Of a DNA stretch of 64,000 nucleotides, positions 38,673-43,455 are shown in pieces. Within the stretch, counting starts at the first letter, position 1; every line of letters starts with the position of its first letter. The notes beneath the pieces were generated by a model. That model had not been told where the DNA came from, did no database searches, and was given only the letters and a program-made list of their open reading frames with translations. Source of the stretch: a phage; the sequence record PV730302.1. One strand, written 5' to 3'. The position numbers were made by a program, and so were the translations under genes.

Positions 38673-39337
38673 TGACTTTAACAGAAATGAAAAGCGGGTT
38701 AAAATCCCGCCTTGCCGACTTTTTAGAATTTTCTTTTACAACTAATCAACCTGCCGCAGTGGCAGGTCAACGCCCTATTGGTGGTCCATCGGCAAACCAA
38801 ACCCAAAAAGGTGTTTATTACCCTACGGTCCAAAGTGCTATTGATGATATTGCTTTCCGTGCAGAACTTCCTGTCAATGCAGTGGTAACTACTACTGAAA
38901 ACAGGGCACCCGGCTTTATTCAACAATCAGATAAATTAACTTTCTCCGGCTCCATTTCTTCTGGTGGCGAATTAGGCGATACGGTTATTATTAAGGTATT
39001 CGGTTTGCCTGTTGAAGTTATTGTGGGTGATTCTTCGGTCCTGGTTGCTTCTAAAGTTAACGATGCTTTTATAAGCGCTATTGCCGATAGTTATATTTTG
39101 GCAGAAACGTCTATCGACCCTCTAGACCAGTCTACTTTAAACATTAAATATAACGACTACCAAAACCATATTTTTGAGCCATTTAAACAAGCAGGATGCA
39201 CCATTTCTCAGACTATAGTTCAACAGCCTCGTGCAGGTTATGGATACTGGGAATATTTAGGTTCTACTACAGAATCTATGACAGGTGGAACCGTAAATGG
39301 AACAACAACCTTATATCACTATAAGCGAGTAAGTTAA
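38672..39337 (+). CDS. 11: baseplate wedge protein gp11
   Basis: 221 aa (T4 219); synteny. Confidence 0.9.
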   Translation: MTLTEMKSGLKSRLADFLEFSFTTNQPAAVAGQRPIGGPSANQTQKGVYYPTVQSAIDDIAFRAELPVNAVVTTTENRAPGFIQQSDKLTFSGSISSGGELGDTVIIKVFGLPVEVIVGDSSVLVASKVNDAFISAIADSYILAETSIDPLDQSTLNIKYNDYQNHIFEPFKQAGCTISQTIVQQPRAGYGYWEYLGSTTESMTGGTVNGTTTLYHYKRVS

Positions 39338-40869
39338 TGTCTACAAATACACTAAAACACATAAGTGATAAATCAGAATTTAAAACATTCGACCCTACTG
39401 GGTCGAATTTTGACCCCTCTATTACTAATGTCCAGGATGCATTGGCGTCTATTTCCGCTATAGGTGTTACAGGTAATATACCTTCAGCTTCTGAAACAGA
39501 ACAGGGTATTATTAGATTAGCGACCCAACAAGAAGTTATTGATGGCACCGATACTTTCTCTGCAGTAACTCCGGCCACTTTAAAAGGCCGTTTAGATATT
39601 CCTACTCAAGCAACAGAAACTTATGTAGGTATCACCCGTTACGCCACTAATGCTGAAGCCATTGCCGGAACAGAAACCCAGGCTGCAATCGTAGCATCGT
39701 CTTTGAAAGCTACTATAGATTATACATTCACCAATCGTTTAGCCACAGAGAACACTACAGGCGTACTCAAGATTTCAACCCTGCCTGCTGCTCTAGCCGG
39801 TACAGATGATACGACGGCAATGACACCGCTGAAAACCGCCCAGGCAATTGGCGCTGCTACATCGGCATTACCAACTTATTCAAGTGCTACTCAAACTACT
39901 GAAGGTATTGTTAGAATCGCAACAAACGCTGAAGTGGCAAATGGTACATTGACTAATGGTGTGGCAATTTCTCCTTCTGGGTTAAAATCTTTAACTTCTA
40001 CCCAAGGACGAGCAGGTATTATTAGATTAGCCACTCCACAAGAAGCTTCTGCTGGCAGTGATTCTAATATAGCTTTATCTCCTTCAACTCTTCTTTCTCG
40101 TACCGGTACTACCGGAAGGTTGGGTGTTGTTAAATTATCGACTACGGTTGGTTCTGGTGATGGGAATACTGCATTGGCATATAATGCTAACGTTATTTCT
40201 ACCACAGGCGGCACCATTAATGGTACTTTAAACGTTAACGGTACTTTACGTCGCAATGGGCGTGATGTTGTTACTATCGACCAATTAAAAGATTCTGTCC
40301 CTATCGGTACTATTGTTATGTGGGGAGGCCAGATTAATAATATCCCTGCAGGTTGGGCTGTTTGTGATGGTGGTAACTCTGGTGAACAAGGATTCCGAAA
40401 TGTAGTTGGTAGTAAATGGGGTTCAACCGGCGCTCGTCCTGATTTCCGTGGATTATATCCTCGCGGTGCAAACCAGACTAACGACGGTGGATTAAGAGAA
40501 TGGGATGCCAACGTTAGAATTAGAGATGCCAAAGGTAATGATGCCAAAGGTAAACCTAAATTAGGCGTGGGTTGCGGTTCATATGGCCATGGCACTGTAC
40601 AAGCCCAGCAGCTTCGTTTCCATAAACACGCTGGTGGTTTTGGCGAACACGACAACGCAGGTGCATTTGGTAATACCGTTCGTTCCAACTTTGCAGGTAC
40701 TCGTAAAGGGCTGGACTGGGATAACCGTTCTTACTTTACAAACGAAGGATATGAAATTGACGGTTCAGGTTCACGAGATTCAAGAACTACTCTAAACAGC
40801 GAAGGGTTAGTTGGTAACGAAAACCGTCCTTGGACTATGTCCATCCTATTCATTATTAAAGTTGCTTAA
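39337..40869 (+). CDS. 12: short tail fibre protein gp12
   Basis: 510 aa; Gly/Thr/Ala-rich repeats; synteny. Confidence 0.85.
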   Translation: MSTNTLKHISDKSEFKTFDPTGSNFDPSITNVQDALASISAIGVTGNIPSASETEQGIIRLATQQEVIDGTDTFSAVTPATLKGRLDIPTQATETYVGITRYATNAEAIAGTETQAAIVASSLKATIDYTFTNRLATENTTGVLKISTLPAALAGTDDTTAMTPLKTAQAIGAATSALPTYSSATQTTEGIVRIATNAEVANGTLTNGVAISPSGLKSLTSTQGRAGIIRLATPQEASAGSDSNIALSPSTLLSRTGTTGRLGVVKLSTTVGSGDGNTALAYNANVISTTGGTINGTLNVNGTLRRNGRDVVTIDQLKDSVPIGTIVMWGGQINNIPAGWAVCDGGNSGEQGFRNVVGSKWGSTGARPDFRGLYPRGANQTNDGGLREWDANVRIRDAKGNDAKGKPKLGVGCGSYGHGTVQAQQLRFHKHAGGFGEHDNAGAFGNTVRSNFAGTRKGLDWDNRSYFTNEGYEIDGSGSRDSRTTLNSEGLVGNENRPWTMSILFIIKVA

Positions 40870-40878
40870 GGAAATAAA

Positions 40879-42468
40879 ATGATTGACAAACTGAGTATTA
40901 AAGAACTTCCGTTTGTCGATGGTGTACCCGATGCATCCCAAGAGCGTATCCGTTGGATACGCAATGGAGAATGTATTGAAGGAGCCACGACTAAATACGG
41001 TCACGACGGTAATTTGAATGCCCCTGCTTTAGGAGTACAAACCAACGTAGTTAGATTAGAAGAAAACAGTATAGCTTCTAAAGACAAAATTAACGAGCTT
41101 GTGGATAACGTTAATTTGATTAATGAAGCCCTAGATATTTCTACTGATACGGCGGTTATTCAGCAAATTGAAAAGAACCGTGTCGATATACTGGCTGTGG
41201 ATGAAAAGGCTTCCGAAACTAAACAAGAATTAGGTGACTTAACCGTTAATTTTAATTTTTTAGAAGAAGATGTAGGTTATTATGACCCGGCTTTAGACGG
41301 GACTTATCTAACCGTCAGAGAAAATATAAATCTTCTTAAATCTGAAATTGGTCATTATGCGAACCAGGATATAAACAGCCAACCGCTTCCTCCAGGTGAA
41401 ACTTCTGAAGCCACCGGCATGAAACGTCGCATTATGGATAATACCAGTGCTATTGTCGACCATTCACAACGTATAGATACCCTTGAAAAGAATTACGAAG
41501 ATTCTGATGTAGGGCAACTTGGGCTTAAGATTAACGAAATTCGTGAAGAACTCGGCCCTCATATCGATACCATAGGTAAACAACCGGCGTATACCAGGAT
41601 TTCCACTCTTGAAACTGCTGCTGTAAGCTTTAACGAATCAATAGATTCTATCAAAACCAGTATAGGTTTTAATAAAGGCCCTATTGATACAAGAGTAACC
41701 ACTCTGGAAACTAAAACTTCAACTTTAGAAAACACCGTTAATACCGGTTTGGTTCCTAGAGTTACTGCAGTGGAAACCGCTATCGGTACGGCAGATGCCC
41801 CTACTTCTATTAATGGTAGATTAGGTGGCTTACGTACCGATGTTAATGAACTAAAAACTATAGTAGGTGCTAGTTCGTCTGAAGGGCTTCGTTTCCAGGT
41901 TTCCGATATAGACCGTAAAATTGGTGCCGATGTAAGTCCGGCTGCGGGAACAATTAATAAACGTTTGAATGACCTTACGACTCAAGGTAATACTTCAGCC
42001 TCAACTATTCAGGATTTACAGGCTGAAATTGGTAATAACCAAACAGGTATTAAAGGTTCTATTCTTAAAATTACCAACCAAATTGAAGGAACAAACCCTA
42101 ACGGTAGTACTGTAGAAGAACGAGGGCTAATAAACTCTGTTAAAGGCCTTGAAGCTCAAATGCCTACTAAATTGAGTGACGCCCCTGCTGATGGTAAATT
42201 GTACGGACGTAAAGATGCGGCATGGGCTGAAGTTGTTGATGCAGGTACAGAAATAGCTGCAGTAAAAGCTTCTTTAGTAGTTACTGATGGTGAGGTTGAT
42301 GATTTAGGAACTCGTTTAACTGCGGCTGAAGGTAAAATCACTGCACTAGAAACTGAGTTGGCTAAACGCCCTCCTGTTGCTCCTGTGGCTGACGGACTTC
42401 CGTATGTTCTGGTTGATAACGCATGGGTACTATTGTCAGATTTTGTGACTTTAAACCCAGCACCGTAA
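40879..42468 (+). CDS. wac: fibritin (whisker antigen control)
   Basis: 529 aa coiled-coil protein; foldon-like C-terminus PVADGLPYVLVDNAWVLLSDF. Confidence 0.85.
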   Translation: MIDKLSIKELPFVDGVPDASQERIRWIRNGECIEGATTKYGHDGNLNAPALGVQTNVVRLEENSIASKDKINELVDNVNLINEALDISTDTAVIQQIEKNRVDILAVDEKASETKQELGDLTVNFNFLEEDVGYYDPALDGTYLTVRENINLLKSEIGHYANQDINSQPLPPGETSEATGMKRRIMDNTSAIVDHSQRIDTLEKNYEDSDVGQLGLKINEIREELGPHIDTIGKQPAYTRISTLETAAVSFNESIDSIKTSIGFNKGPIDTRVTTLETKTSTLENTVNTGLVPRVTAVETAIGTADAPTSINGRLGGLRTDVNELKTIVGASSSEGLRFQVSDIDRKIGADVSPAAGTINKRLNDLTTQGNTSASTIQDLQAEIGNNQTGIKGSILKITNQIEGTNPNGSTVEERGLINSVKGLEAQMPTKLSDAPADGKLYGRKDAAWAEVVDAGTEIAAVKASLVVTDGEVDDLGTRLTAAEGKITALETELAKRPPVAPVADGLPYVLVDNAWVLLSDFVTLNPAP

Positions 42469-42473
42469 TAAAA

Positions 42474-42491
42474 GGGCTTCGGCCCTTTTTT
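42474..42491 (+). terminator. intrinsic terminator GGGC-UUCG-GCCC plus U6 after wac
   Basis: hairpin immediately followed by TTTTTT. Confidence 0.7.
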
Positions 42492-42493
42492 GC

Positions 42494-42501
42494 TATAAAT
42501 A
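42494..42501 (+). promoter_or_regulatory. late promoter TATAAATA (gene 13)
   Basis: exact octamer 22 nt upstream of gene 13 ATG. Confidence 0.7.
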
Positions 42502-42522: not shown

Positions 42523-43455
42523 ATGGCAAGTGAATCATTTAACCCTAAGCAACTCAAGGACGCTATCCTGCGCCGCCTGGGTGCGCCGATTACAAATATT
42601 GAAGTAACTACAGACCAAGTATATGATTGCATCCAGCGAGCCCTAGAGCTCTACGGTGAGTACCATTATAACGGGTATAACAAAGGTTATCAGGCTTTTT
42701 ATATCGGCCATGACGATGAAGAAAAATTCCGTAATGGGGTATTTGACCTTAAAGGCCGTAATATATTTGCAGTGACACAAATTTTGAGAACCAATGTAGG
42801 TTCTTTAACATCTATGGATGGGCAAGCGACTTATCCGTGGTTTACTGATTTTGTATTAGGCTTAGCAGGTATTAATGGCGGGCTAGGGTCTTCGTGTAAC
42901 AGTTTTGGACCTAATGCCTTCGGCGCCGACCTTGGTTATTTTACCCAACTAATGCAATATCGTTCTATGATGCAGGACCTTTTGGTTCCACTACCTGATT
43001 ATTGGTATAACGATGCCACCGAACAGTTGAAGGTAATGGGTAACTTTGTTAAAGGCGATTTTATTGTAATTGAAGTTTATACTCGCTCTTTTAATGGGGT
43101 TGATTCTATGGTAGGAAATACCGTAGGATACGGTTATGCTTCAGCTTGTGGTGAAGATGCATGGAGCCCGGGTGCTATTTGGGATAATCCGGCGCGTCGT
43201 ATTTCTGGTATGCGTGTAGGTGAGGACCTTGGTCTTCAAGATGGTGCATATAATAACCGTTGGGTCAAAGATTATGCCACGGCATTGGTTAAAGAAGTCA
43301 ATGGTAATATTTTAGCCAAACACCAAGGCATGCAACTTGCAGGTGGAACCACCGTAGATGGCATTCGATTGATTGAAGAAGCTCGTTTAGAAAAAGAACG
43401 ACTTCGCGAGGAATTAGATTTACTCGACCCACCAACACCTATTTTAATTGGATAA
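42523..43455 (+). CDS. 13: neck protein gp13
   Basis: 310 aa (T4 309); synteny. Confidence 0.9.

Follow-up and report, generated by a model that had tools for sequence, protein, structure and literature searches.

Among described fibritins, the closest to the one reported here are those of the JS98 type, which carry 'two foldon-like motifs' with a coiled-coil spacer of differing length between them (Letarov & Krisch 2013, PMC3797505). Both T4 and JS98 fibritins are described as trimerising with these small motifs only, and a deletion in the JS98 type has been proposed as a possible origin of the T4 type (PMC3797505). T4 fibritin attaches by its C-terminal end to gp35, the kneecap of the long tail fibre (PMC3004832). 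Given that the JS98-type protein has already been published (PMC3797505), the presence of two motifs in one fibritin was known by 2013, and what we describe carries little weight as a discovery; its remaining value is practical and descriptive.

We analysed a window of 64,000 nucleotides of phage DNA (sequence record PV730302.1), the window being the whole of that stretch. The reading we favor, with a probability of roughly 85%, is that it contains the wac gene of a Dhakavirus encoding a JS98-type fibritin, with the layout and the mechanism set out below.

The fibritin gene and its neighbours

The gene and its surroundings consist of the following features.

39337..40869, plus strand: gene 12 (short tail fibre), a 510-aa ORF upstream of wac, in the position of annotated gp12 in IME08, JS98, 04086, CLB_P2 and Bp7
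40879..42468, plus strand: wac, fibritin (neck whisker protein), 529 aa plus stop, from the ORF list
42465..42493, plus strand: putative intrinsic terminator, a hairpin and then a T-run just after the wac stop, from direct RNA folding
42523..43455, plus strand: gene 13 (neck protein), a 310-aa ORF downstream of wac, in the position of annotated gp13 in related phages

The placement of wac between gene 12 and gene 13 is identical to the annotated order in related phages, except in the mis-annotated ESCO10 record. The wac DNA is 93.8-97% identical to the annotated wac of the closest Dhakavirus relatives (H1-H10, which include 04086, C6, AnYang, fDHCT2, IME08 and JS98-C3), and the 22 kb around it are about 97% identical to fDHCT2, C6 and AnYang. 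From this similarity at the DNA level we conclude that the window belongs to a T4-like coliphage of the JS98/IME08 group and that the gene is wac. Identity to the JS98-C3 wac record is 95.1%. Latypov et al. are said to have published a study on JS98C3 in 2007. At the protein level identity is 67% to JS98, 71% to Bp7 and 92-93% to dhabil and fDHCT2, and the exact 529-aa sequence is absent from a collection of 15 billion proteins. The resemblance to T4 fibritin extends over most of the chain: phmmer matched aa 6-428 to 2bsg_A (E 2e-74) and aa 7-84 to the N-terminal fragment structure 1ox3 (E 6e-15), and Pfam Fibritin_C matched aa 373-453 with 86.1 bits, the cut-off (gathering score) being 21.

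The ORF list holds no extra ORF between wac and gene 13, which is consistent with self-trimerisation without an accessory chaperone, as reported for JS98 fibritin (PMC3797505). The hairpin 3' of the wac stop was missing from the output of a consensus terminator scan and was therefore folded directly; its energy of -14 kcal/mol (z = -3.3) was equalled by 1 of 200 shuffles, and together with the T-run it is likely to be an intrinsic terminator.

Two foldon-like motifs and the helix between them

The layout of the protein comprises an N-terminal domain and segmented coiled-coil body resembling those of T4 (aa 1-430), a hairpin (431-451), a spacer (452-496), a linker (497-501) and a foldon (502-524). 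The parts beyond the body map to the DNA as follows.

42169..42231, plus strand: internal foldon-like beta-hairpin, aa 431-451 (KLSDAPADGKLYGRKDAAWAE), from the foldon profile, Pfam Fibritin_C, strands predicted by AlphaFold2 (AF2) and identity to the T4 foldon
42232..42366, plus strand: coiled-coil spacer, aa 452-496, from the AF2 helix, the heptad pattern and a weak Pfam DUF7310 match
42367..42381, plus strand: proline-rich linker RPPVA, aa 497-501, read from the sequence, non-helical in AF2, conservation 0.72
42382..42450, plus strand: terminal foldon, aa 502-524 (PVADGLPYVLVDNAWVLLSDFVT), from the foldon profile, identity to the T4 foldon, the AF2 hairpin, Foldseek and conservation

A sequence-only reading of this DNA had drawn attention to positions 42160-42468, which correspond to aa 428 through the stop codon, and its description of the protein was borne out. 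The fibritin, which it held to be about 40 residues longer than that of T4, has 529 aa against 487 aa (2bsg_A), a difference of 42 aa. The C-terminal sequence that it fitted to the foldon pattern, PVADGLPYVLVDNAWVLLSDF at aa 502-522, is supported by profile, shuffle and AF2 results, and the internal segment that it placed some 70 residues upstream, APADGKLYGRKDAAWAEV at aa 435-452, is offset by 67-70 residues. The coiled coil it proposed between the two is predicted by AF2 as a helix at aa 455-496 and has a clean heptad pattern, in which hydrophobic residues occupy 13 of the 15 a/d positions; Pfam DUF7310 (coiled coil) gives a weak match at aa 452-493.

The similarity of both segments to the foldon was evaluated with a profile of 27 positions, built from the C-terminal foldons of 19 single-foldon fibritins and run over the complete six-frame translation of the window (961 segments, 64,575 aa). 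Only two places matched, both within the fibritin: aa 431-451 with 20.8 bits (E 9e-6) and aa 505-522 with 17.3 bits (E 1e-4), the third-best score in the window being 4.6 bits. In BLOSUM62 local alignments the T4 foldon scored 55 against the internal motif (9/18 identical) and 58 against the terminal motif (14/25 identical, with one 1-aa gap), and none of 5000 shuffles scored as high in either case; the two motifs scored 32 against each other (8/18 identical), a value reached by 7 of 5000 shuffles. Both segments are confirmed as foldon-like beyond chance, with a coiled coil in between. The Pfam Fibritin_C model detects the internal copy only: the isolated internal fragment scores 22.4 bits (cut-off 21) at profile positions 58-91 of 93, which is the foldon portion, and isolated terminal fragments gave no match to this model.

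A monomer model of aa 396-529 (134 residues) was obtained with AF2 from a 16-sequence alignment, with a mean pLDDT of 77. As it is a monomer with a pTM of 0.39, its local secondary structure alone is informative. The model contains: (i) strands at aa 442-445 and 448-451, which form the internal beta-hairpin; (ii) one continuous helix over the stretch given above, which is the most confident part (block-mean pLDDT about 80-97); and (iii) strands at aa 509-512 and 515-518, which form the terminal hairpin, followed by a short helix. The hairpin-plus-short-helix predicted for the terminal segment is the layout of the T4 foldon. Foldseek searches of the PDB placed solved foldons (1RFO, 8UDN, 4NCW, 1NAY) on part of the model with a local rmsd of 0.8-1.0 A and 44-56% identity across 25-28 columns, the aligned hairpin (internal or terminal) not being reported by the tool; the identities of 52-56% agree with the 14/25 of the terminal-motif alignment. 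Fibritin and foldon entries headed the Foldseek list with E-values of 0.16-2 (0.7-2 for the foldon matches), which are non-significant because the matches are so short, and as global TM-scores are meaningless for the monomer of a trimeric fibre, we used local rmsd and identity.

The sequence-only reading had itself named the alternative that the internal segment is ordinary coiled coil, unrelated to the foldon, to which a chance match may be added. Helices on either flank and the lack of the hydrophobic foldon tail would fit such an origin, but the profile score holds against the whole six-frame window, the foldon portion of Fibritin_C exceeds its gathering score, AF2 gives a beta-hairpin and no helix at this place, and the pattern AP.D...Y.R....W is invariant in 16 homologues. 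We regard this alternative as almost certainly wrong; Pfam, the foldon profile and the AF2 hairpin rule out ordinary coiled coil.

Motif sub-types, spacer alleles and the question of duplication

The two motifs differ in kind. The terminal motif ends 7 residues before the wac stop codon and alone keeps the hydrophobic foldon tail (WVLLSDFV vs WVLLSTFL in T4). In the T4 foldon, a Glu5-Arg15 salt bridge between subunits stabilises the trimer. The residues aligned with these two are Ala/Val and Leu in the terminal motif, where the pair is absent and appears, from the alignment, to have been replaced by hydrophobic residues, and Asp and Arg in the internal motif. With the pair lost from the terminal copy and an acid/Arg pair kept in the internal one, the latter may add more to trimerisation or stability than we assign to it below.

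The internal motif contains the hairpin core APxDGxxYxRKDxxW, of which A435, P436, D438, Y442, R444 and W449 do not vary among 16 two-motif fibritins. It has neither the C-terminal location nor the hydrophobic tail of the foldon, W449 being followed by AEVVDAG (0/7 identity to VLLSTFL) and then by helix, and we therefore call it foldon-like but not a foldon in the strict sense. In sequence it resembles the tail-less hairpins of the APxDGxxYGRxxxxW class found in non-fibritin phage fibre proteins. Its best solved relative is aa 122-147 of JBD30 gp54 (SDAPSDGKAYARESGAWTE, E 0.003; Foldseek local match of 23 columns, rmsd 1.7 A), a segment that begins the knee domain, an antiparallel beta-sheet and then a short helix, of a trimeric fibre protein (PMC11445458). 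Similarity to the internal motif also led to a set of non-fibritin proteins (P0003, P0069-P0080) in which the same hairpin is followed by coiled coil. Against a profile of such non-fibritin motifs the internal motif scored 54 vs 28 bits, a comparison that is suggestive but biased and inflated by the retrieval of those proteins through similarity to the internal motif and is given little weight.

Both motifs are widespread. All six Dhakavirus wac genes compared (IME08, JS98, 04086, ESCO10, CLB_P2 and Bp7) encode two-motif proteins, with the internal motif starting at about aa 434 and a nearly invariant terminus, PPVAPxADGLPYVLVDNAWVLLSDFVTLNxAP. Alignment with related fibritins, the check proposed in the sequence-only reading, shows both motifs throughout the Dhakavirus fibritins examined and also in more remote fibritins. 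In the wider homologue survey, for which the full-length protein was the query (a C-terminal 122-aa query gave 3 proteins only), we found: (i) one-motif fibritins, namely T4-like ones, proteins of 477-482 aa ending in GYIxDAPSDGKFYVRKDGxWVELPT and proteins of 455-459 aa ending at the position of the internal motif; (ii) two-motif fibritins in Dhakavirus, Yersinia phage vB_YenM_P8, Enterobacter phage CIP9 and others; (iii) three to six tandem motifs in the fibritins of EcS1 and CHI14; and (iv) one motif and then an unrelated domain in the fibritin of Yersinia phage MHG19. In most fibritins the internal motif lies at a constant distance from the N-terminus (aa 432-437), irrespective of what comes after. 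Among 16 two-motif fibritins (43-91% identical), mean column conservation is 0.86 for the terminal motif, the highest of any segment, 0.70 for the internal motif and 0.52 for the spacer, and the key residues of both motifs are invariant.

In a neighbour-joining tree of the fibritin body (aa 1-428), single- and double-motif forms are interleaved and include three sister pairs of one single- and one double-motif protein. Within each pair, 16-20 of 24 positions of the single foldon agree with the terminal motif of its sister and only 9-12 of 24 with the internal one. Our interpretation is that the terminal motif corresponds in function to the classical foldon and that the internal hairpin and the spacer are gained or lost as one block in front of it. 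By these sequence comparisons, the terminal motif would be a divergent but genuine foldon and the true foldon equivalent of the protein. The sequence-only reading had taken the terminal copy as canonical, which stands insofar as this copy is nearer to the T4 foldon and has the tail; against it, Pfam Fibritin_C recognises only the internal copy, located where short fibritins end.

The spacer is the variable part. It ranges from 40 to 325 aa among 30 relatives, in which both motifs are always kept, and its long forms hold repeats of about 27 aa. No heptad or 11-residue periodicity was found in spacer length among relatives, as expected for a segmented coiled coil. The fibritin of the window has a short allele of 55 aa, with gap boundaries absent from the other alleles compared. 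These were mapped by aligning the 3' part of wac from seven Dhakavirus phages at the DNA level with MAFFT:

42294..42295, plus strand: junction where 810 nt of the long-spacer IME08 allele have no counterpart (in-frame gap), from MAFFT; the position is alignment-dependent, within a few nt on either side

The gaps in the wac genes of 04086 and Bp7 have boundaries unlike those of the window in the same alignment, and we therefore take the three short alleles to be independent events, each of which spared both motifs.

These data bear on the suggestion, made in the sequence-only reading, of a partial duplication of the trimerisation module. Its descriptive part stands, both segments being foldon-like with coiled coil between them, but there was no duplication event in this genome and the motifs are of different sub-types. 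Had the foldon-coding segment undergone a recent partial tandem duplication in this lineage, giving a redundant second trimerisation module, one could point to the significant similarity of the motifs to each other, to the 42 aa by which the protein exceeds that of T4 and to the published view that 'a single deletion or duplication' separates the JS98 type from the T4 type (PMC3797505). However, no DNA direct repeat was detected between 42169-42231 and 42382-42450 (only chance matches of 14-18 nt elsewhere), and the motifs have just 8/18 residues in common and belong to different sub-types, with and without tail. Moreover, all Dhakavirus fibritins compared have both, as do fibritins that are only 43-50% identical to the one described here. 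The missing DNA repeat, the low identity, the wide distribution and the differing sub-types largely refute a recent duplication, which we consider very improbable. From the sequences compared, the two-motif architecture is older than the genus, and any duplication is not recent; the motifs may go back to a duplication in the distant past, or a module of hairpin and coiled coil may have been acquired. The occurrence of one, two or three to six motifs, together with the interleaving of single and double forms on the body tree, would imply repeated in-register recombination between motifs. With the same hairpin present in unrelated fibre proteins as well, the survey supports the published interconversion of T4 and JS98 types by deletion or insertion between motifs.

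Possible roles of the motifs and comparison with known systems

By analogy with T4, the beta-hairpin propeller of the terminal foldon would nucleate trimerisation and, starting from the C-terminal end, bring the three parallel strands of the coiled coil into register. The same foldon would form the tip of the whisker, which in T4 contacts the long-tail-fibre kneecap. The internal hairpin may act as a local three-fold 'knot' or registration point that interrupts the coiled coil, for which the JBD30 knee offers a parallel. The spacer would set the length of the extension only, expanding by repeats of about 27 aa and contracting by in-frame deletion; at 1.5 A per residue, we infer that the variable extension adds about 6-48 nm.

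The roles could also be reversed, with the internal motif as the working foldon at an ancestral tip, trimerising a T4-like body, and with the spacer and terminal motif as an accessory fibre, for example for extra reach or surface contact. This is in keeping with the exclusive recognition of the internal copy by Pfam, with the acidic and Arg residues that it retains at positions 5 and 15 of the foldon (a pair important in the T4 foldon), with its fixed distance (aa 432-437) from the N-terminus in most fibritins and with the unrelated domains that other lineages, such as that of Yersinia phage MHG19, append after the same motif. We nevertheless think it unlikely, as the terminal motif is both the most conserved segment (0.86) and the one nearest to the T4 foldon (14/25), the single-motif sister fibritins have the terminal type and no internal type, and a coiled coil beyond the internal hairpin would in any case require a separate element to register it. 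A JS98-type fibritin registered from its terminal foldon remains our preferred reading. The internal copy of Dhakavirus, lying at a fixed distance from the collar (aa about 434), might all the same be the real docking point for the long-tail-fibre knee, in which case the variable extension would have a separate role, e.g. reaching the cell surface.

A more general proposal, which we put forward tentatively and hold to be doubtful, is that the foldon-like hairpin is a reusable three-fold 'registration knot' of phage fibres and does more than cap trimers at the C-terminus. Foldon tags are in wide use for engineering trimeric proteins, and alternative sources of such tags could be sought among divergent natural foldons, e.g. 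the salt-bridge-less PVAPxADGLPYVLVDNAWVLLSDF, and among tail-less internal hairpins that tolerate a downstream coiled coil.

With regard to known systems, one parallel is the knee of the JBD30 receptor-binding protein gp54 (DUF2793; PDB 8RK3), which likewise has an internal, non-terminal hairpin in a trimeric fibre protein; unlike the fibritin, gp54 is a siphovirus baseplate protein, unrelated outside the motif, with no coiled-coil body and no second motif. The short single-foldon fibritins of 455-459 aa (for example P0035, P0033 and P0036, the last from Pectobacterium phage PM2) share a body that is 49-52% identical, and their only foldon starts at aa 432-435, the position of the internal motif here. 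They stop there, most of them with a complete foldon and an LLSTFL tail (PM2-like proteins end in WVDITTL), whereas the protein described here has a helix in place of the tail and 78 more residues. T4 fibritin (1AA0, 1AVY, 1RFO, 2BSG) shares the N-terminal domain, the segmented coiled-coil body and the gene order 12-wac-13, and its foldon shares WVLLSxF with the terminal motif. It differs in lacking an internal hairpin, its one foldon lying at aa 457-483, and relative to the T4 foldon the terminal foldon has a 1-aa insertion (APVADG vs AP-RDG) and seven extra residues after the Phe. The JS98-type fibritin, from the same genus, has the same T4-like body, two foldon-like motifs and variable coiled-coil spacer, and the protein of the window differs from it in the allele only (55-aa spacer, 810-nt gap vs IME08); what is particular to the window is this short-spacer allele.

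Spacer alleles and the internal hairpin

The coiled coil that separates the internal foldon-like hairpin (aa 431-451) from the terminal foldon (aa 502-524) of the window fibritin was found to be strongly polymorphic in length, ranging from 40 to 325 aa among 30 relatives. Comparison with the wac loci of six Dhakavirus phages (L001-L006) placed the gap in the window as follows.

42232-42366, coiled-coil spacer of wac, with the gap junction near 42294/42295

Relative to the long alleles, in-frame gaps are present in the window, phage 04086 and phage Bp7, and because the gap boundaries are different in each, these three short alleles have independent origins. The exact 529-aa window fibritin has no identical entry in the public protein collection.

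In a quick neighbour-joining tree of fibritin bodies, built without support values, a single-foldon fibritin groups as sister to a double-motif one in three separate pairs (P0035/P0026, P0033/P0031 and P0032/P0030). These pairs suggest that the block of internal hairpin plus spacer has been gained or lost repeatedly in fibritins.

The wac-gene 13 interval and public annotation

Two features were detected between wac and gene 13:

Within 42465-42501, stable hairpin plus T-run directly 3' of the wac stop codon (-14 kcal/mol, z -3.3)
42494-42501, T4 late-promoter-like TATAAATA, upstream of gene 13

The window contains 19 copies of TATAAATA, where 7.3 would be expected, and most of them are on the + strand.

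In the IME08 record (L001, HM071924.1, 1432-3900) the annotated wac start lies 69 nt upstream of that in the other records and wac as annotated overlaps gene 12; the start codon was probably mis-called. In the vB_EcoM_ESCO10 record (L004, OM386655.1) wac is labelled 'phospholipase', gene 13 is entered as a 'hypothetical protein', and the name given to gene 14 is 'baseplate hub subunit and tail lysozyme'. These labels look like annotation errors, as does the source name of the protein P0019, 'Zn-ribbon protein'.

Hairpin arrays and carriers other than fibritins

Three fibritins, P0038 (Escherichia phage EcS1, 607 aa), P0041 (Serratia phage CHI14, 584 aa) and P0043 (550 aa), have 3 to 6 foldon-like hairpin motifs in tandem at the C-terminal end, spaced by approximately 29-32 aa without intervening coiled coil, and the final copy is missing the LLSTFL tail. 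A limited literature search found no published account of such arrays in fibritins.

One to four copies of the hairpin (APxDGxxYGRxxxxW) are also present in non-fibritin metagenome proteins (P0002, P0003 and P0069-P0080), often with a coiled coil after it. The hairpin looks like a modular element widespread in phage fibres; the same hairpin is found in the JBD30 receptor-binding protein gp54 (PDB 8RK3), where it occupies aa 122-147, the beginning of the knee.
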